In this document: positions 9,426 to 28,045 of the stretch, piece by piece
Layout of the letters: every line of letters starts with the position of its first letter
Position numbering within the stretch: position 1 is the first letter of the stretch
Assembly (NCBI RefSeq): GCF_001306055.1
Contig: NZ_LGHJ01000012.1
Span: 210,001-242,000, forward strand
Length of the DNA stretch: 32,000 nt
Direction of reading: 5' to 3'
DNA from: Bellilinea caldifistulae
GTDB taxonomy: Bacteria; Chloroflexota; Anaerolineae; Anaerolineales; Anaerolineaceae
Position numbers and translations under genes: made by a program
The notes under the pieces: model-generated
Database searches by the model: none
What the model was told of the DNA's origin: nothing
The model's input: the letters and a program-made list of their open reading frames with translations, nothing else

Positions 9426-10114
9426 ACATCCTTGCAGTCAGTGATATTGAACTGGGATTTATCTACAACGTTCAAATTGGACAGCGTTTCAAGAACGTTG
9501 ATTTTGTCATCAGTTGCGGAGACCTTCCATATTACTACTTGGAATTCATTATCAGCGTGCTTGACCGGCCGCTCTACTACGTGCGCGGCAACCACGCCAG
9601 CAAAGTAGAAATCACCACCGCTGGTGAACGGAGTTCTCCATGGGGGGCGGTTGATCTGCACCGCCGGGCTGTCTGCTCCCCGCAGGGAGTTTTGCTGGCC
9701 GGCATTGAGGGAAGCCTGCGTTACAATTACGGCCCGCATCAATACACCCAGGCCGAAATGTGGTGGATGGTGCTGGGTCTAACCCCGGCGCTGATGCTGA
9801 ACAAGCTCCGTTTTGGGCGGTATCTGGACATTTTCTTAACCCATGCGCCGCCGTGGGGTATTCATGACATGGATGATTTACCGCACCGTGGGATTAAGGC
9901 TTTCAACTGGTTGATTCAGGTATTCCAGCCCACCTACCACCTGCATGGGCATATTCACGTCTATCGCAATGATACCGAGATAGAAACCCGAGTCGGCAGC
10001 ACAACCGTCATCAATTGCTACGGTTATCGCGAAATTCAATTCAATTTTCAAGAAGTCAATCGGCCGCTGCCCGATATGCAATCCAGCTTTGGGCGGAGGA
10101 TCAAATATGAGTGA
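9422..10114 (+). CDS. calcineurin-like metallophosphoesterase
   Basis: Motifs CGDLPYY (GD), VRGNHA (GNH), THAPPWG and LHGHIH are present. Motif I reads SDIEL instead of the usual DxH. Confidence 0.8.
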   Translation: MNILAVSDIELGFIYNVQIGQRFKNVDFVISCGDLPYYYLEFIISVLDRPLYYVRGNHASKVEITTAGERSSPWGAVDLHRRAVCSPQGVLLAGIEGSLRYNYGPHQYTQAEMWWMVLGLTPALMLNKLRFGRYLDIFLTHAPPWGIHDMDDLPHRGIKAFNWLIQVFQPTYHLHGHIHVYRNDTEIETRVGSTTVINCYGYREIQFNFQEVNRPLPDMQSSFGRRIKYE

Positions 10115-11153
10115 TTCAATCAATTCATCGTTTTTCGAGAAGATTGCCCGCGAGGACTTTGAACAGGCTCTTCGCAAGGGTTTCTGGCGTTCGGTGTTAG
10201 GCTGGTTTAATAAATCAACCAACCAATTACTGGCTTTTGACGAAGTCCGCAAATACCTGCCAATACGCGGACAGTACGATGTGGGGGTACGCCAGATTCC
10301 GATTGACAAAATCGTCGGGAGTGTCGGCCGCTATAACGATTTTGACCGAGCATTCTTGCCCCGCCACCGTCACATCCGCTCCCGTTGGGTGAGTATTGAT
10401 GTGGCAAAAATGAAGGAAATTGAACTACCACCCATCGAGGTTTATAAAATCGGGGATGTGTATTTTGTCAAGGATGGCAACCACCGTGTTTCGGTGGCTC
10501 GTGAAAAAGGGCAAAAGTACATTGATGCTTACATCACCGAAATCGTAACCGACATTCCAATTGACGAAAACACCGACATCAACTGGCTGGTGCGGATGCA
10601 CGAAAAATCGGAGTTTTACCAGAAAACCCGCCTGCACGAATTGCGTCCCGATGCCAACATCGAATTGACCCTGCCGGGTATGTACCCCAAGTTATTGGAA
10701 CACATTCAGGTGCACCGCTGGTACATGGGAGAAAAACGAGGAAGCGAAGTGCCTTTTGAGGAGGCCGTCGCCTCCTGGTATGATGAGGTTTATTCCCCGC
10801 TGGTCAAAGTCATTCAAGAATTGGGGATTTGCAAAGAGTTCCCCGGACGTACCTCGGCCGATTTGTATTTATGGATCATCGAACACCTCTATTATCTGCG
10901 AGAAGAATTCCGCCAGGAAATCAAGTTGGAGGATGCCGCGCGGAGTTTTGCCGAGGGGTATTCACCCAATCCGGTCCGCAAGTTGATCAACCTTTTTCGC
11001 AAGTTGACTCGCCTGGTTGCAGAGGGATTGGAGGATGCCTCAGAACTCGAATTGGGCATCCTCCCCGAAGAAATGATGCTGGATGTGGACGAAGTCAAAC
11101 CGGAGGACAATCCGAATCAGCCGGAGAGCGAAGACAAAGACTTGACCGACTGA
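10107..11153 (+). CDS. ParB/sulfiredoxin-like N-terminal domain protein with a conserved C-terminal domain of unknown function and an acidic tail
   Basis: Track ORF 10089..11153. The ATG at 10107 lies 7 nt after GGAGGA. The segment PPIEVYKIGDVYFVKDGNHRVSVAREKG matches the ParB/Srx DGxHR-type core. The C-terminal half (HRWYMGEKRG...WYDEVYSPL...DLYLWIIEH) resembles what I recall being annotated as DUF4032; this is unverified. Confidence 0.7.
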   Translation: MSDSINSSFFEKIAREDFEQALRKGFWRSVLGWFNKSTNQLLAFDEVRKYLPIRGQYDVGVRQIPIDKIVGSVGRYNDFDRAFLPRHRHIRSRWVSIDVAKMKEIELPPIEVYKIGDVYFVKDGNHRVSVAREKGQKYIDAYITEIVTDIPIDENTDINWLVRMHEKSEFYQKTRLHELRPDANIELTLPGMYPKLLEHIQVHRWYMGEKRGSEVPFEEAVASWYDEVYSPLVKVIQELGICKEFPGRTSADLYLWIIEHLYYLREEFRQEIKLEDAARSFAEGYSPNPVRKLINLFRKLTRLVAEGLEDASELELGILPEEMMLDVDEVKPEDNPNQPESEDKDLTD

Positions 11154-11374
11154 TCCTGTACACCCAGCCAGAAATGATTGGGTAAAATGCGTCGGTTGGT
11201 TTTGATAAGAATCCCGTTTCGTTGAAGGGTATCCTCGTTAACCATGCTGGGATGAACAAAACACACATCCGGTCGAACGCCGTATTTTTTCTCGTAATAA
11301 TCGGCAGCGCGTTTGATTTTGGAAGATAAATCGGTTTTTTGATCGTTGTCGAACCATAACATTCCGATGTTCAT
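11117..11374 (-). CDS. small hypothetical protein (85 aa), second gene of the AT-rich cassette
   Basis: Track ORF 11117..11446. The ATG at 11374 is preceded by GGAGGTCTGTATC and starts 19 nt after the upstream gene's stop. Sequence: MNIGMLWFDNDQKTDLSSKIKRAADYYEKKYGVRPDVCFVHPSMV... No TM segment and no family I can name. Confidence 0.6.
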   Translation of the reverse strand: MNIGMLWFDNDQKTDLSSKIKRAADYYEKKYGVRPDVCFVHPSMVNEDTLQRNGILIKTNRRILPNHFWLGVQDQSVKSLSSLSG

Positions 11375-11393
11375 GATACAGACCTCCAAAAAA

Positions 11394-12215
11394 TTAGATC
11401 GAATCGGGGAGGTAAAAATGGTGTTCTCGTTGACCAATCTGGACAACGAATTCCTTACCGTTGATGAGAGTGTTGGAATTCAACCCGGAAAGATTTGAAA
11501 GAGTGGATGCCAGGCGATGATCCTTCATTTTGCCGATGATGCGGGTCTTAAATTTTTCCACCCATTTTTTTTGCTCGGCAGCAGTGCGACTGTCCATGAT
11601 CACAATCGGCCAGATTTCATAGAAAGGGCCTTCTTCCAGCAGCCATTCAAAATTCAACCGAACATCAAAATCCATATATGGTAAAGTATCAAAACCATCC
11701 AAAATGATTAACCGGCACTCCCCCTCATTCCTGCCGTGCTGTCGGCTTTCAACCCGATCGGCTTCGTCCAGAATGGCTTTGCCTGCCGGATGGTCATAAT
11801 TGTTTGTAAAATGAGAAAAATAATTTTTGTAACGATCGTACTCAAATTTCCACAGGCTGGTTCGTGCGCTGATCAGGGAAAATTGAATTTCATAAACCGG
11901 GTTGGTAAGAATCAATGAGTACATCAAAGTTTTCACCAGACGCATCTTTCCTGCCTCAGGGTCGGAGATGATCAAAATTGAACCCGGACGAGGATCCATC
12001 AAATCAAACAACAGGGGATTTTCATCAGAATCGACCCCCAAAAAACCCGTCCGCAAAGGAAGGGGCAACAAAGAATTCAGGTAATTGCGTAACCCGTACT
12101 CAGGAATGGGTTTTGAGGATGAAGGATTACCTTTTGGGGAAGACCATTGAGGAAGATCAACCTCAATCGCTTCTTTTTGATTGACCGGTATATCCACAAT
12201 CGGTAGGGAAATCAT
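11394..12215 (-). CDS. stand-alone FtsK/SpoIIIE/HerA-like P-loop domain protein with degenerate Walker motifs
   Basis: 273 aa, with AAAGGAG 5 nt before the ATG. The layout matches the FtsK motor core: GFLGVDSDENPLLFDLMDPRPGSILIISDPEAGKM (Walker A position), CRLIILDGFDTL (Walker B position) and IVIMDSRTAAEQ...TRIIGKM (ATQRPS/arginine-finger region). Confidence 0.6.
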   Translation of the reverse strand: MISLPIVDIPVNQKEAIEVDLPQWSSPKGNPSSSKPIPEYGLRNYLNSLLPLPLRTGFLGVDSDENPLLFDLMDPRPGSILIISDPEAGKMRLVKTLMYSLILTNPVYEIQFSLISARTSLWKFEYDRYKNYFSHFTNNYDHPAGKAILDEADRVESRQHGRNEGECRLIILDGFDTLPYMDFDVRLNFEWLLEEGPFYEIWPIVIMDSRTAAEQKKWVEKFKTRIIGKMKDHRLASTLSNLSGLNSNTLINGKEFVVQIGQREHHFYLPDSI

Positions 12216-12242
12216 GGCTTACTCCTTTGGTAACTTTACTTG

Positions 12243-12271
12243 ATTATAGAACATATGTACTATTTTGTCAA
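12243..12271 (-). promoter_or_regulatory. consensus sigma-70 type promoter TTGACA-17 nt-TATAAT for the FtsK-like cassette
   Basis: The minus strand reads TTGACAaaatagtacatatgttcTATAAT, with both hexamers perfect and a 17-nt spacer. The ATG at 12215 lies 26 nt downstream of the -10 and has an AAAGGAG SD. Confidence 0.65.
12248..12261. promoter_or_regulatory. LexA (Cheo-box)-like operator candidate AGAACATATGTACT inside the promoter spacer
   Basis: GAAC-ATAT-GTAC compares with the Gram-positive-type LexA consensus GAAC-N4-GTTC, with one mismatch in a conserved half-site. The central ACATATGT is a perfect palindrome. The box sits exactly between the -35 and -10. Confidence 0.35.
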
Positions 12272-12381: not shown

Positions 12382-12939
12382 GTGATTAAAGAAACTGTCA
12401 AAGATGCCGAAAATCGCATGAAAGGCGCAATCCAATCCCTGGAAGAAGACCTGGCAGGCATACGCACCGGGAGGGCAACCCCTGCACTGATCGAAAAACT
12501 GCCGGTGGAATACTACGGCGTCCCGACACCCTTGATGCAACTTGCCTCCATCAGCGTACCCGATGCGCGCACGTTGCTCATCAAACCCTTCGACGCATCC
12601 GGTCTCAAAGCCATTGAACGCGCCATCATCACTTCCAACCTCGGCCTGACACCCAATAACGACGGGAAAACCCTGCGGCTCAACCTCCCTCCACTGACCG
12701 AAGAACGCCGGCGCGATCTGGTCAAAGTGGTCAATCAACGTTTGGAAGAAGCCAAGGTCGCCATCCGAAATGTCCGCCGTGACATCCTCAAAGACCTGCG
12801 CGATTTTGAAAAAGAAAAACTGATCTCCGAAGACGAACTCAAAAAAGGTGAAGACGAACTTCAAAAACTGACCGATAAAATGATCAGCGAGATTGACCGG
12901 ATCGGAGAAATCAAGCAAAAAGAAATTATGGAGTTTTAA
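12382..12939 (+). CDS. frr: ribosome recycling factor
   Basis: GTG start 6 nt after AAGGAGG. The 185-aa protein reads ...GIRTGRATPALIEKLPVEYYGVPTPLMQLASISVPDARTLLIKPFD...LPPLTEERRRDLVK..., a full-length Frr pattern. Confidence 0.95.
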   Translation: MIKETVKDAENRMKGAIQSLEEDLAGIRTGRATPALIEKLPVEYYGVPTPLMQLASISVPDARTLLIKPFDASGLKAIERAIITSNLGLTPNNDGKTLRLNLPPLTEERRRDLVKVVNQRLEEAKVAIRNVRRDILKDLRDFEKEKLISEDELKKGEDELQKLTDKMISEIDRIGEIKQKEIMEF

Positions 12940-24265: not shown

Positions 24266-24838
24266 TCACGCCTTTTCGCCGCAGTCATTGCATTTTGGTT
24301 CATAAAACATCAACGTGCCGCGCACGTCGTAAACAAAGCGACAACAATCCTCAAACATCTTTTTCAGCATCCGCCTGCCGCGCTGTACCCGCGATTTGAC
24401 CGCGGATGGGGAAATTTGCTGGCTTTGCGCAATTTTACTTTGCGCAATTCCCTCGATTTCAGCCAGCAGGATGGCCTCACGGTACTTCTCAGGCAATTCG
24501 TCAATCATTGGCAGCAGACAACAGGCCAGTTCTTTCTCAACGCTTTGCTCTTCCTCTGTCGGCAGCGCGACCAGCCACTCCGGCAAGGGCTGAGAGGGAC
24601 GTTTGGCGCGGTAATAATCCACAATTGCGTTACGGGTGATCTGATAAATCCAGCCTTGCAACCGGGTAGCGTCCTTCAAGGAAGGCAGATTCGAATAAAT
24701 GCGCAGGAAGACCTCTTGCAGAATGTCCTCACTGGTCATCCTGTCCCCCACCCGCTTTTGAATGAAATCCAGCAAGCGGCTTTTATAGGTTGCCCACACA
24801 GTTTCAAACAGGCTCTCAGTGGTCATCTCATTATTCAC
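24266..24838 (-). CDS. ECF-type RNA polymerase sigma factor with C-terminal Cys-rich extension (SigZ/CorE-like)
   Basis: Region 2 (DILQEVFLRIY...WIYQITRNAIVDYYR) and region 4 (LPEKYREAILLAEIEGIAQSKIAQSQQISPSAVKSRVQRGRRML) are present. The tail reads EDCCRFVYDVRGTLMFYEPKCNDCGEKA. The track start at 24838 is GTG; an ATG at 24826 is the alternative. Confidence 0.85.
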   Translation of the reverse strand: MNNEMTTESLFETVWATYKSRLLDFIQKRVGDRMTSEDILQEVFLRIYSNLPSLKDATRLQGWIYQITRNAIVDYYRAKRPSQPLPEWLVALPTEEEQSVEKELACCLLPMIDELPEKYREAILLAEIEGIAQSKIAQSQQISPSAVKSRVQRGRRMLKKMFEDCCRFVYDVRGTLMFYEPKCNDCGEKA

Positions 24839-27800
24839 ACATGCAGGCGGATCGTTTTTATCTCAAACGGGCGAAAATCCAGTTGAATTTCACCGTTTGC
24901 AAAATCGAGCGGTTGGGCACCCTCTTCCAGCAGGTTGGTCTGGCTGGCGGCCTGTACCGGCAGAGCCGTTTTCAACGTGCAACGGGTAGCCGTGCGCATA
25001 CCCTCGTACAAGCGCAGGATGATATCCCCGCTGCCATCCTCCGCCGGTTTGACCGTCTCGATGACGATGTTTTCCTGATCCAGCCTGAACAGGGATACCG
25101 GTTCGGCAGCGGAGGTGCCTTCCACCACCAGCGGCGGCACATTCAAATCATAGGCCTCGCGCAATAAACCGCTTTCCAGCAGACTGCCGTTCCAGTAATA
25201 CACGGCGTAGGTAAAAGTTTGCAAACCGCGGTCGGCGTTCATGTCCGGCGCCATTGCCGATTTCAGCAAACTCAAGTTGATGGTATTACCGCGGGCGCTC
25301 AGGCCGTATTTGCTGTCGTTCAGCACGGCCGCACCGCGCCCTTCTTCAACCAGCGCACTCCATTTGTGATTGCAGATCTCAAAGCGGTCGGCGTCGTACT
25401 GACGCGAGCGGTGATTGGGACGGCGTAAATGCCCAAATTGAATCTCGCTGACTACTTCATTGGTATGCAGGTTGAATGGGAAGGCAACTTTGAGCAGTTT
25501 GTGTCGCTCCTGCCAGTCCACGCAGGTAGCAAAATCAATCCGTCGGCTGCCCCGGCGCAGGGTGATCACCTGTTCGACCGTCGAATGATGCAGCCGGCGG
25601 CGCAGACGCAAACGGGCAGCCAGTCCGCCCTCAGTGAGAACTTCCATTTCAACTGGTTCATCCGTCGCTACCGGCAGCAGTTCGGTCATGCTGTCCAGGT
25701 CCCAGGCATCCCACTTCGTAGGAACATCTTTATAAAGGCACAGGCGGTTAGCCGGCCCGGCCAGTACTTCGCGCCCGGTCTCCTTATCCCACAGGCTGAT
25801 CAGTTCTCCGCGCCGGTTGAAGCGGGCGGTAAGCAGCTCATTTTCCAGCCCAAAACCATCCGCTGCTTTGAAGGCACGTGCCGAAGGGGCTGGGCTTGCA
25901 TCCGCTGGCTGATTGGGAATGGCTGCCCAGCCACAGGGTGGCAATTCAACCTCCACCTCACCTTGCGGAGTGGCAAACAGCGCCCGGCGCGGCCAGGGAA
26001 GCGAGTTGAACGCCGTCCGGCCGGCCCCGCTGCCGCTCAGCAACCGGGCAGCCTGTTGTGCGGTTTGACCGGCAGCCGCCAGAATCTCGGCATAGGCGGC
26101 TTCGGCTTCCTCATAGACGCGGGCAATGGAGGAACCCGGCAGAATATCGTGGAACTGGTGGAGCAGCAGGTTGCGCCACTGCTCCCACAGGGATTGAGGC
26201 GTAAAATCAAAGCCTTGCAGAGCACGAGCCGCACATCCCCACATTTCGGCCTCACGCAGGGCAAATTCACTGCGCCGGTTACCGCGTTTGGTGCGCGCTT
26301 GCGAGGTATAGGTGCCGCGGTGCGCCTGAAAATACAACTCACCCACATAACGTTCTCTGGGCAGACCATGCGCGAATAAATCCTCAAAAAATTCTGCCGG
26401 CGATGCCATCCGCACCCGCGGCAGGCCTTCCAGGTCCTGCACCCGGCGGTAGAATTCCAGATGATCGCGGGTCGGGCCGCCGCCGCCATCCCCCCATCCA
26501 AAGGATTGAATCATCGAATGGATGCCGTTCGCCTGCAGGCGGGTATTCCAACGCTCCATCAGGTTGCGCGGACGCATTTCGCTATTGTAATCGGTGAAGA
26601 TGTGCGCCGGTATGGCGCTGCCGTCAATTCCCTCCCACCAGAAGATGTTATATGGAAACTGCTCACCGCCGTTGTAGGCCCAGGTGATCTTCTGGGTGGC
26701 AAAGCCGATCATGCCGCAGCCCTTGAGGATTTGGGGCAATGCGCCGGAATAACCGAAGACATCCGGCAGCCACAACACGCGGCTGTCCACCCCCAATTCG
26801 TCGCGGAAGAAAGCCCGCCCGTAGAGAATCTGGCGGATCAAACTCTCACCGCCGCTCAGGTTGGTATCGGCCTCCACCCACATACCACCGTCGGCAATTA
26901 CCCGACCTTCACGCACAGCCTGTTTGAAGCGCGCGTAAATCTCCGGGTAATATTGTTGCAGCATCCAGTAAAGGTGCGGCTGGCTCTGTAAAAAGCGAAA
27001 TTCGGGGTATTCCTCAAACAAGGCCAGTTGATTGAGGACGGTTGCAGCCATTTTACGCTGTGTATGCACCAGCGGCCACAGCCAGGCCACGTCAATGTGG
27101 GCGTGTCCAAAGGCGAACAGGGTCGGCATCGTCGGGCCATTGCGCTTTTCCAGCACGGGGCGCATTCGCTCACGTCCGGCACGGATAGTTTCCAGCATCT
27201 CTTCTTCGGGTAATTCCGGGTCAATCAGCAGGGTTGCGTCCATCAGGGCTTCGTCAATCTGACAGGCGCGCAGGCTGCGCGGATCGAGAAGCTGGCTGAG
27301 ATCGAACAGCGTGGAAAAGTCCACCGCCGCCTGATAAATTTCCTCCCGCCAGATACCCACGCTCGAATCGCCCACCACACACTGGGTCGGGCCCGGCTCC
27401 GGTACCGATTCGACCCCATCCGGGTAGGGGCCATCCCCCACCGTAATGTGACCATGGCCGGCGTAGGATTCGAGCAATATCTCAAAGCGCTGACCGGCGG
27501 CTGCCTGCCGAGTCAGGGTGATTTCGGTGTGTCCCCACCCAAACGACCCGGCCGGCTGACCGTTGATCCACACCACACTCTCCACCCCGCCGGTATTAAT
27601 GCGAATGACCACCCGCTTGCCCTCCGCTTCGGGTGATATGGTTACCAGCGTGCGAAACCAGCCGTACTCCCACTTGGCGCCCCACGCCGTGCCGGGAGGC
27701 ATGGGGGAAAAGGTACGCTGCAGGGCCTGCTGAGGGGTGAGATGCTCGGTTGTGGCAAAACCCTCTAAATACAGGGTTTGAAGGGGGCGGTAACAGGCAT

Positions 27801-27858
27801 TCCACAGGGCTTTTTCCCACAATTCGATACGGTGTTTCCACTCAATTGTCAGCGCCAT
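24835..27858 (-). CDS. glycoside hydrolase family 38 alpha-mannosidase
   Basis: Track ORF 24835..27885 starts with TTG. The ATG at 27858 follows GAGGAG by 9 nt. About 1007 aa, with the GH38 N-terminal catalytic pattern (FAFGHAHIDVAWLWP...), a central domain (HDILPGSSI) and a C-terminal beta-sandwich region. Confidence 0.9.
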   Translation of the reverse strand: MALTIEWKHRIELWEKALWNACYRPLQTLYLEGFATTEHLTPQQALQRTFSPMPPGTAWGAKWEYGWFRTLVTISPEAEGKRVVIRINTGGVESVVWINGQPAGSFGWGHTEITLTRQAAAGQRFEILLESYAGHGHITVGDGPYPDGVESVPEPGPTQCVVGDSSVGIWREEIYQAAVDFSTLFDLSQLLDPRSLRACQIDEALMDATLLIDPELPEEEMLETIRAGRERMRPVLEKRNGPTMPTLFAFGHAHIDVAWLWPLVHTQRKMAATVLNQLALFEEYPEFRFLQSQPHLYWMLQQYYPEIYARFKQAVREGRVIADGGMWVEADTNLSGGESLIRQILYGRAFFRDELGVDSRVLWLPDVFGYSGALPQILKGCGMIGFATQKITWAYNGGEQFPYNIFWWEGIDGSAIPAHIFTDYNSEMRPRNLMERWNTRLQANGIHSMIQSFGWGDGGGGPTRDHLEFYRRVQDLEGLPRVRMASPAEFFEDLFAHGLPRERYVGELYFQAHRGTYTSQARTKRGNRRSEFALREAEMWGCAARALQGFDFTPQSLWEQWRNLLLHQFHDILPGSSIARVYEEAEAAYAEILAAAGQTAQQAARLLSGSGAGRTAFNSLPWPRRALFATPQGEVEVELPPCGWAAIPNQPADASPAPSARAFKAADGFGLENELLTARFNRRGELISLWDKETGREVLAGPANRLCLYKDVPTKWDAWDLDSMTELLPVATDEPVEMEVLTEGGLAARLRLRRRLHHSTVEQVITLRRGSRRIDFATCVDWQERHKLLKVAFPFNLHTNEVVSEIQFGHLRRPNHRSRQYDADRFEICNHKWSALVEEGRGAAVLNDSKYGLSARGNTINLSLLKSAMAPDMNADRGLQTFTYAVYYWNGSLLESGLLREAYDLNVPPLVVEGTSAAEPVSLFRLDQENIVIETVKPAEDGSGDIILRLYEGMRTATRCTLKTALPVQAASQTNLLEEGAQPLDFANGEIQLDFRPFEIKTIRLHV

Positions 27859-28045
27859 GCCAAAAGTCTCCTCGGAAGGTATCAATAACCCCGATTATAC
27901 CGGTTGGACTGGAAAACCGTCAAAACCCATCGAAAAATTCCCGCACCTTTGCAGCCCGCTGTGGATAAAGAGTCAACCACAGGTGACCGATGAGGATTCC
28001 GAAATCACCCCCTATGGATTAGAAAACCTTAATCTTTCTCTTGTA

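Follow-up and report, generated by a model that had tools for sequence, protein, structure and literature searches.

Several described systems resemble in part the locus analyzed here, which lies in a 32,000-nucleotide stretch of the Bellilinea caldifistulae genome (contig NZ_LGHJ01000012.1, positions 210,001 to 242,000; hereafter the window) and contains two minus-strand genes, geneA (273 amino acids) and geneB (85 amino acids), between a convergent DUF4032 gene and a divergent frr gene. SftA of Bacillus subtilis is a soluble FtsK-like translocase that clears DNA from closing septa, and its mutants are sensitive to DNA damage; it is not known as LexA-regulated or as paired with a small partner. 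SulA and ImuA are LexA-regulated, inert derivatives of ASCE/RecA-type NTPase folds, and they bind FtsZ, or ImuB and RecA. In E. coli, ftsK itself is SOS-induced via the dinH promoter (Wang and Lutkenhaus, 1998; Dorazi and Dewar, 2000, both as cited in PMC4080785). YneA, SosA, and ChiZ are small SOS division inhibitors that are encoded next to lexA, according to works cited in PMC9380542. The coupling of DNA damage to chromosome handling and septation in filamentous multicellular bacteria has been noted as a gap for Streptomyces (PMC9380542). For the Chloroflexota, our literature search found no paper on the SOS regulon, which is essentially uncharted in this phylum.

The locus shares features with each of these systems and differs from all of them. 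Similar to E. coli dinH-ftsK, it combines a promoter predicted to be LexA-controlled with an FtsK-family protein and may tie the damage response to DNA translocation at division. However, E. coli FtsK is large, membrane-anchored, and active, with alpha, beta, and gamma domains, whereas geneA codes for a soluble beta-core that lacks the Walker B glutamate and has a small, apparently co-transcribed partner without an E. coli counterpart. The D2 and D3 domains of EccC and EssC (4n1a, 4nh0, 5fv0, 6tv1) are also impaired FtsK-like domains, and they regulate or dock a small protein of about 100 amino acids, but they follow one another in tandem within a single membrane protein of a secretion machine and their partner is WXG100-like. 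SftA, also soluble and of the FtsK family, acts in chromosome clearance, the role that we propose for a short FtsK-like protein encoded beside lexA (see below), but it is catalytically active and is homologous to geneA at the family level only. The likeness to SulA and ImuA is that of a putatively SOS-induced, degenerate P-loop fold; geneA belongs to the FtsK/HerA branch and theirs are RecA-like, with no sequence or Pfam match between them. In SmeA and SffA of a filamentous, multicellular bacterium, a small protein and an FtsK-like one have adjacent genes and coupled functions, but the small one (SmeA) is located in the membrane, the FtsK-like one (SffA) is an active translocase, the system is developmentally regulated rather than SOS-controlled, and no homology to geneA or geneB was detected. 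Like YneA, SosA, and ChiZ, geneB would be a small LexA-controlled candidate effector, and it is found in a lexA operon in one locus (L248), but those inhibitors have a transmembrane (TM) segment, with or without LysM, and a 134-amino acid two-TM protein of the same L248 operon fits them better. Neither geneA nor geneB had a Pfam or NCBIfam match to SulA, DinI, or YneA-type effectors, and geneB had no match in PDB or BFVD at E ≤ 1e-3. In the literature and databases searched, we found no description of the two families, their pairing, their lineage-wide LexA control, or the link between lexA and a short FtsK.

Our results suggest, with about an even chance of being right in full, that geneA and geneB form a LexA-repressed SOS operon of the Anaerolineae core genome whose products act with FtsK-type translocases. 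The regulatory logic is that of a classical SOS operon. The promoter TTGACA-17-TATAAT upstream of geneA is the sole 12/12 consensus promoter in the window, and none appeared in 100 shuffles. Its spacer contains the predicted operator GTACATATGTTC, which differs from the LexA box GAAC-N4-GTTC by a single core mismatch (GTAC in place of GAAC) and is the sole site in the 32 kb within one mismatch of AGAAC-N4-GTTCT. GAAC-N4-GTTC is a LexA motif shown for Dehalococcoides, a member of the Chloroflexota. It is also the established, experimentally determined LexA motif of Gram-positive bacteria (PMC3323433). When the orthologous upstream regions were aligned on their best promoter match, almost all had a full or near-full consensus promoter accompanied by a 16-bp palindrome. 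The motif TAGAAC-N4-GTTCTA, with no more than 2 of 12 mismatches and within 200 nucleotides of the first gene, was present in 76 of the 81 distinct orthologous upstream regions and in 1 of 3061 control windows, which were 200-nucleotide stretches from the same loci. Perfect GAAC-N4-GTTC sites numbered 62 in 750 kb of loci, compared with about 11 expected, and about 52 of the 62 were located in a geneA/geneB-type promoter. The register of the box varies among loci: it may abut the -10 hexamer, abut the -35 hexamer, or lie just downstream of the -10 hexamer, and some loci carry two to three copies. Because the register shifts relative to the hexamers, the box appears to be conserved in its own right and not as a by-product of them. 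The same promoter and box precede geneB where geneA is absent, and a box is also present upstream of a long form of geneA that stands alone. One metagenome-assembled genome (MAG), MFD00709.bin.2.142, has two geneB loci on different contigs (L081, L082), each with a TTGACA-TAGAACAAATGTTCTG promoter.

The same box was found at the core genes of the SOS response. As a test within the lineage, metagenomes were scanned for TAGAACANATGTTCT, and the box lay directly upstream of recA (L092, L193) and of lexA (L132, L101, L125). A profile made from two box-linked LexA proteins then retrieved LexA sequences that their depositors had named Anaerolineae or Chloroflexi. Ahead of lexA in L212, L214, L216, L132, L101, and L248, one or two boxes are located inside a TTGACA/TATAAT promoter. 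The lexA promoter of L212, CTTGACACAGAACGCATGTTCTGGTATAAT...CAGAACGTGTGTTCTA, has the same architecture as that of geneA/geneB; the promoter of L216 reads TTGACAAATAGAAAAAATGTTCTATAATAGAACAAAGGTTCTA, and those of L214 and L248 are similar. The layout TTGACA-[C/TAGAAC-N4-GTTCT]-TATAAT plus a second box at lexA in these Anaerolineae- or Chloroflexi-named MAGs is identical to the geneA/geneB promoter layout. Since lexA is autoregulated and the box precedes lexA, the box is very probably the LexA operator of these bacteria. Imperfect left half-sites seem to be tolerated, because lexA's own boxes show half-site degeneracy (GAAA, GAAT). We consider it highly probable that the geneA/geneB unit is under LexA control. 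A LexA-gated promoter had been suspected in a first-pass annotation of this DNA, and that view gained strength, with the predicted operator kept across orthologues and common to the lexA promoters of the same lineage. Given a LexA box combined with a promoter of maximal strength, the pair is expected to stay silent under normal conditions and to be expressed strongly once DNA damage occurs.

Alternatively, the palindrome might be the operator of another dimeric repressor, with the unit lying outside the DNA-damage response. The core mismatch in the window site speaks for this, LexA binding there being a prediction. However, the motif is the established Gram-positive LexA box (PMC3323433), and the same promoter layout precedes lexA in related MAGs and the box precedes recA elsewhere, so we give this explanation a very small chance. 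No lexA or recA gene was found in the window or in the 91 loci by tblastn with E. coli LexA and RecA as queries. The neighbors just upstream of the promoter code for TetR, a metallo-beta-lactamase-fold protein, Dus, a methyltransferase, and a glycosyltransferase, with no SOS gene among these.

The locus is conserved across the Anaerolineae. In a collection with a single genome for each species, about 548 geneB loci were detected, and the species-level counts given here refer to the best 80 matches listed. These best 80 of about 548 were all from Anaerolineae or unclassified Chloroflexota MAGs. Among the geneB-bearing taxa are Anaerolinea thermolimosa IMO-1, Longilinea, Levilinea, Brevefilum, and Bellilinea, and A. 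thermolimosa has geneA as well as geneB (L066). Homologs of geneB formed more than 306 clusters at 54-95% identity, and geneA had 21 close clusters, all from Anaerolineae or Chloroflexota MAGs, e.g., Bellilinea. The order of a divergent frr, geneA-geneB, and convergent genes for DUF4032, metallophosphatase, ACPS, M16, and M16 was kept down to 43% geneA identity. In both genes the nonsynonymous divergence (pN) was far below the synonymous divergence (pS), the synonymous sites being saturated so that no ratio of the two rates (dN/dS) could be given. Therefore, both appear to be functional genes under purifying selection. As judged from sequence and synteny, the geneA/geneB locus is vertically inherited and part of the Anaerolineae core genome.

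The region had at first been described as foreign-looking and AT-rich. The AT-richness is real, with a guanine-plus-cytosine (GC) content of 0.43-0.45 at geneA/geneB vs. 0.556 across the whole window. The GC content of geneB was below that of the rest of the locus in 97% of loci, by a mean difference of 5.6 points, and this low value seems to be intrinsic because the conserved residues are rich in Lys, Asn, Tyr, and Phe. AT-richness of geneA was seen in the window's clade only. A foreign island was ruled out by the conserved frr-DUF4032/metallophosphatase synteny and by the low GC content of geneB everywhere.

These data also bear on the possibility that the locus is a domesticated mobile-element module, in which a toxin, addiction, or abortive defence function would be silenced by LexA and would fire on damage or phage attack. 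The first-pass annotation had raised a defence or addiction element of this kind. FtsK/HerA-type ATPases occur in known defence systems, and the Foldseek list of geneA contains SIR2/HerA (8woc). A promoter of full consensus would have to be tightly repressed, the composition is AT-rich in the window's clade, and geneA-like and geneB-like genes exist on IMG/VR contigs with integrases, ParA/ParB, and ribbon-helix-helix (RHH) proteins. However, searches against PADLOC-DB gave no significant match, only a weak one of geneA to mad8 (E 0.021, 12.3 bits) and none for geneB. Both genes hold a fixed core position, at frr-DUF4032/metallophosphatase or beside holA, in many genera and are under strong purifying selection, the LexA box is missing from the mobile-element copies, and, one unrelated rve insertion in L001 aside, neither integrases nor repeats flank the two genes. 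A defence or addiction role is therefore improbable. The insertion in L001 (L001:6338-7480, on the same contig as L016) is an rve-family transposase between frr and geneA in a 4.87-Mb MAG chromosome (OY969938.1), where geneA still has beside it a promoter and box in weakened form (TTGACT...TAGTAATTATGTTCTATACT).

The protein coded by geneA was modeled by AlphaFold2 (AF2) with a mean predicted local distance difference test score (pLDDT) of 84 and a predicted template modeling score of 0.81. Residues 1-33 had a pLDDT below 50, and residues ~40-273 formed an FtsK beta-type RecA-like core. In Foldseek searches, the best match was EccC ATPases 2-3 with signal peptide (4n1a, E 4.8e-11), together with FtsK (6t8g/2ius, E 1e-10 to 5e-10), TcpA (6o1w, E 1e-9), EccCb1-D2, and EssC-D3. 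The E-values ranged overall from 5e-11 to 3e-7, and the query-normalized TM-scores against EccC, FtsK, and TcpA were 0.6-0.68. The family profile searched against PDB sequences found EccC (4nh0, E 1e-5). Matches to domain models were weak: the Pfam FtsK_SpoIIIE model (PF01580) scored 16.1 bits, below its 24-bit cutoff and over residues 59-116 only, and NCBIfam EccCb scored 15 bits with a cutoff of 346. Two distant family members, P0017 and P0018, have a weak precomputed PF01580 match. There was no Pfam match to FtsK_alpha or FtsK_gamma, and the protein is a single domain made up of a disordered N-terminus and the beta core, with no TM anchor.

The nucleotide-binding motifs of geneA are degenerate. 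Its Walker A sequence is SDPEAGKM, compared with the consensus GxxxxGK[ST], so that the Gly-Lys pair is kept and the first Gly and the Ser/Thr are gone. This motif is variable in the family: a canonical motif is present in P0017-P0019, P0142, P0143, and P0150, and members at 43-45% identity have GxxxxGKT. The motif has disappeared entirely from many members further out, and P0159, P0163, P0165, and P0183 have no GK at all. The Walker B sequence is LIILDG, without Glu, and its D173-G174 is invariant in a 19-sequence alignment. The Walker B Glu is missing in 19 of the 19 aligned members and in nine further members, which have D-G, D-D, or D-T and never D-E. Scaffold motifs of the family are kept, namely E-S-R-Q-H-G-R before Walker B, F-x-T-R-I-x-G, and a C-terminal G-x-E-F. 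An exhaustive profile search gave 595 representative clusters of this family at E ≤ 1e-10. At the N-terminus, residues 1-8 (window 12192-12215) form the conserved MISLPIVD, which is of the RPPLxVP type in the long forms P0165, P0169, and P0183. The motif is followed by a variable disordered linker, of about 30 amino acids in the short form and of 200-470 Pro/Asn/Gly-rich amino acids in the long forms. The N-terminal extensions of the long forms are of low complexity and contain no Pfam domains. The motif and linker look like a tethered docking motif. The first-pass annotation had described a stand-alone 273-amino acid FtsK-like domain with degenerate nucleotide motifs, and the fold found by Foldseek and the Walker motifs read from the alignment agree with it. 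We conclude that geneA is a predicted pseudo-ATPase, an FtsK-like domain that stands alone and whose catalytic motifs depart from the canonical form.

The EccC matches could indicate a minimal type VII-like pair, with geneA as a degenerate equivalent of EccC/EssC D2-D3 and geneB as a small secreted or docked substrate. The best Foldseek match and the profile search both lead to EccC, the weak NCBIfam match is to EccCb, and geneB is small with a variable C-terminal tail. However, FtsK and TcpA match geneA equally well, geneA is a single domain without TM, FHA, or tandem ATPase domains, and the active protein most closely related to it is soluble and FtsK-like and includes an FtsK_alpha domain. 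The fold predicted for geneB is alpha/beta and not a WXG100 helical hairpin, and EccB/D/E- or EssA/B-type membrane genes were present in none of the loci. The probability of this explanation is close to negligible. The absence of secretion or conjugation partners nearby, as first reported for this DNA, was confirmed: no such genes were found near geneA/geneB in the window or in the syntenic loci.

The nearest active relative of geneA is encoded in lexA operons. In all four lexA loci with downstream DNA (L132, L212, L216, L248), lexA is followed by a gene for a soluble protein of 350-410 amino acids with FtsK_alpha and FtsK_SpoIIIE domains. The Walker A and B motifs of this short FtsK are intact (Walker B IDELADL), and it has no TM segment and no gamma domain. 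The hidden Markov model (HMM) of the geneA family aligned with the four proteins over nearly the full length of the model (E 5e-13 to 2e-10), and a BLASTP comparison with geneA gave 23% identity over 221 amino acids (E 4e-8). The match of geneA to the short FtsK is better than that to any PDB FtsK or EccC sequence. With the FtsK-like protein of mobile elements, the geneA profile gave no meaningful hhalign alignment and no hmmsearch match. In L248, the operon order is lexA, short FtsK, an 82-amino acid gene, a 134-amino acid two-TM gene, and geneB (A2 HMM, E 4e-28), and the operon converges on holA/DUF6391, the context of geneA-geneB or of lone geneB elsewhere. The simplest reading of these comparisons is that geneA may be a degenerate duplicate, or a replacement, of the lexA-linked SOS FtsK-like ATPase. 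The 82- and 134-amino acid genes of L248 occupy L248:4583-5280, and the latter, with two predicted TM helices, is a candidate SOS division inhibitor. In L216, a 126-amino acid gene and a DUF6504 gene stand in their position.

The protein coded by geneB is a member of a conserved family of 75-90 amino acids. The motifs GMLWFDN, KYG..P..C, and H.W.G are invariant and the C-terminal tail is variable. Across the chromosomal and mobile copies, the invariant residues are G4, M5, L6, W7, F8, D9, K19, A23, K30, Y31, G32, P35, C38, P42, H67, W69, and G71. The AF2 model (pLDDT 78) is a small alpha/beta domain with the element order beta-alpha-beta-beta-beta-alpha, and no hydrophobic segment is visible in the sequence. 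None of the structure searches gave a match at E ≤ 1e-3: the best in PDB was E 0.57, and the best in BFVD was E 0.03, to unnamed or uncharacterized phage proteins. In addition, geneB had no match in PDB sequences (profile search), Pfam, NCBIfam, PHROGs, PADLOC, PLSDB plasmids, or INPHARED phages. It had been noted at the outset that neither protein could be assigned to a described system, and the Pfam, NCBIfam, PADLOC, structure, and PHROGs searches likewise found none. Two candidate assignments of geneB were rejected. A Pfam match to PD-(D/E)XK nucleases (E 0.044, 14 bits) was below threshold and had no other support, and a metal site at Cys38/His41/His67 was discarded since His41 and Asp11 are not conserved in the mobile-element copies.

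Copies of geneB are also present on mobile elements. In IMG/VR, 28 contigs have geneB-like genes at 36-59% identity, without the LexA box and without the host synteny. On 8 of these contigs, a membrane-anchored, catalytically intact FtsK/SpoIIIE-like gene is located within ~0.9 kb upstream of the geneB-like gene, and in 7 of the 8 a ParA gene follows or overlaps the geneB-like gene. The block of FtsK/SpoIIIE-like, geneB-like, and ParA genes can be seen at L219:941-4022, and also in L220, L221, L231, L232, and L236-L238. Genes for ParB, tyrosine integrase, RHH proteins, a Cas4-like nuclease, and DUF5131 were found near the mobile geneB-like genes, and on one contig (L247) a geneB-like gene is accompanied by a geneA-like one. 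These contigs may be Chloroflexota integrative/conjugative elements or plasmid-like prophages rather than lytic phages. Thus, geneB stands beside FtsK-like genes in three settings, namely geneA-geneB, the lexA-short FtsK operon that ends in geneB, and the FtsK-geneB-ParA block of mobile elements. By its distribution, geneB is apparently the older and wider component of the pair. The link to FtsK and chromosome segregation that the first-pass annotation had proposed is supported indirectly, in that the nearest active relative of geneA is in the lexA operon and geneB recurs beside FtsK-like genes.

Another explanation accepts the SOS regulation but assumes that geneB modulates the RecA filament or a polymerase as an analogue of DinI, with geneA as an unrelated accessory sharing its promoter. 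The geneB protein is soluble and alpha/beta, with about 80 amino acids, and we take its element order to be DinI-like. Like DinI-type genes, geneB is both LexA-controlled on the chromosome, as predicted here, and present on mobile elements; its distribution is also much broader than that of geneA, and it is often the only one of the two behind a LexA box. However, searches of Pfam, NCBIfam, PDB, and BFVD connected geneB with neither DinI nor any repair protein, in sequence or in structure, and a DinI-like role leaves its adjacency to three kinds of FtsK-like gene unexplained. We regard a DinI-like function as unlikely.

A homolog of geneA, as detected with the geneA-family HMM, is located directly upstream of geneB in 37 of the 80 species-level loci, at 24-77% identity. 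This wide span of identity among the paired loci indicates that geneA evolves much faster than geneB. The pair is found in two chromosomal contexts, beside frr/DUF4032 and converging on holA/DUF6391, and its recurrence in two different contexts points to a functional connection and not to a frozen accident. The pairing is frequent and not obligatory. The two-gene module of the first-pass annotation, for which a check of co-occurrence had been suggested, is therefore retained as a recurrent neighborhood and not as a fixed unit. In two loci of the holA context, a conserved protein of 167-201 amino acids is encoded between the LexA box and geneB, in geneA's place (L025:3457-3960, L028:3334-3939). 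It has the motif ...MIWVSWPKK.SG...DL.EN.IR...LVDVKVAAID..WSGLKLVIR and no Pfam match.

We propose the following mechanism for a LexA-repressed operon acting with FtsK-type translocases. In uninduced cells, LexA would occupy the 16-bp GAAC-N4-GTTC-type operator in the spacer of the full-consensus sigma-70 promoter and keep the operon off. After DNA damage, RecA-stimulated self-cleavage of LexA would free the promoter, and geneA and geneB would be co-expressed from one short-leader mRNA, each via its own Shine-Dalgarno sequence. The geneB product would be an ancient, near-universal small soluble protein working with FtsK-type DNA translocases, and geneA would be a catalytically disabled descendant of the short FtsK of the lexA operon, in which the fold and scaffold motifs are kept and the Walker B Glu is lost. 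As a regulatory or docking subunit, geneA might join or cap an active FtsK-like hexamer, or present geneB to the motor, and the two products may interact with each other as well as with FtsK-like motors. In this way, the operon would control DNA translocation, chromosome clearance, or septum closure during repair. A role at FtsK-type motors is favored because geneA looks like a disabled copy of the lineage's SOS FtsK-like ATPase, geneB occurs beside FtsK-like genes three times over, and E. coli ftsK and EccC/EssC offer precedents. This FtsK-linked mechanism of geneA and geneB is tentative, and we place it somewhat short of an even chance.

Several observations weigh against the operon and mechanism proposed above. 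The window operator has a T at position 4, which was found in 3 of the 76 sites, and repression there could be weaker because its left half-site is of the rarer type. The contigs with the lexA loci used here are from MAGs or metagenomes and were placed in the Anaerolineae or Chloroflexi by depositor names or shared synteny alone. About half of the loci have geneB without geneA, and the long form of geneA (~440 amino acids) stands alone at the frr/metallophosphatase site. As the genes separate freely, a strict one-to-one geneA-geneB complex is not required. Twenty of the 28 mobile-element geneB-like genes have no recognizable FtsK-like neighbor within 3 kb, and the AF2 model of geneB is only moderate, with no structural relative detectable.

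There is a realistic chance that geneA/geneB represents a new family of small partners of FtsK-like motors. A bolder claim is that geneB founds a new family of small FtsK-translocase partners and that geneA/geneB together with the lexA-encoded short FtsK constitute a new SOS checkpoint of filamentous multicellular Chloroflexota, in which the pseudo-ATPase would join or cap the motor and control DNA clearance and septum closure after damage. We consider this rather unlikely. The operator signature is lineage-wide and easily scored, and it defines a putative LexA target without a homolog in model organisms. The FtsK-like proteins form a natural series from active to fully degenerate, which is useful for studying how pseudo-ATPases regulate ring motors. 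In addition, geneB is a very conserved protein of 75-90 amino acids with a novel-looking fold, repeatedly located beside FtsK-like genes on chromosomes and mobile elements.

Table 1. Positions of the features of the geneA/geneB locus in the window, and of the lexA-linked operons in their own loci.
Feature	Position	Strand	Basis or remark
-35 hexamer TTGACA	12266..12271	-	12/12 consensus; kept at most orthologous loci, ahead of the first gene
Predicted LexA operator TAGTACATATGTTCTA	12247..12262	-	16-bp palindrome, Cheo-box type; fills the spacer, 2-nucleotide overlap with the -10 hexamer
-10 hexamer TATAAT	12243..12248	-	Consensus match
Shine-Dalgarno AAGGAG of geneA	12222..12227	-	6 nucleotides ahead of ATG; read from sequence
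geneA, predicted FtsK-like pseudo-ATPase, 273 amino acids, ATG start	11394..12215	-	Alignment, motifs, predicted fold
Shine-Dalgarno GGAGG of geneB	11383..11387	-	Within the 19-nucleotide intergenic gap 11375-11393; read from sequence
geneB, 85-amino acid soluble alpha/beta protein	11117..11374	-	Family alignment, AF2 model
DUF4032 gene	10089-11153	+	Convergent with geneB; Pfam
frr	12382-12939	+	Divergent from geneA; then uppS, cdsA, glpX
Apparent lexA-short FtsK operon	L132:211-2228; L212:3001-4793; L216:3001-4713; L248:2788-4586		Behind one or two LexA boxes

The coordinates, gene sizes, 19-nucleotide gap, Shine-Dalgarno sequences, promoter, and palindrome reported in the first-pass annotation were all recovered (Table 1). 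The start of geneB is the ATG at 11374 and not an upstream TTG, because all homologs begin at MNIGMLWFDND. At their 3' ends, geneB and the convergent DUF4032 gene share 37 nucleotides (11117-11153). A search of the region against Rfam gave nothing relevant, with one spurious sub-threshold match to a long non-coding RNA. In the DUF4032 protein, a ParB/Srx-like motif, FVKDGNHRVSVA, was seen by eye, and Pfam gave DUF4032 alone. The only other near-consensus promoter in the window is TTGACG-18-TATAAT (11/12), which is located at 27894-27923 on the minus strand, just upstream of an open reading frame of 1016 amino acids (24835-27885).

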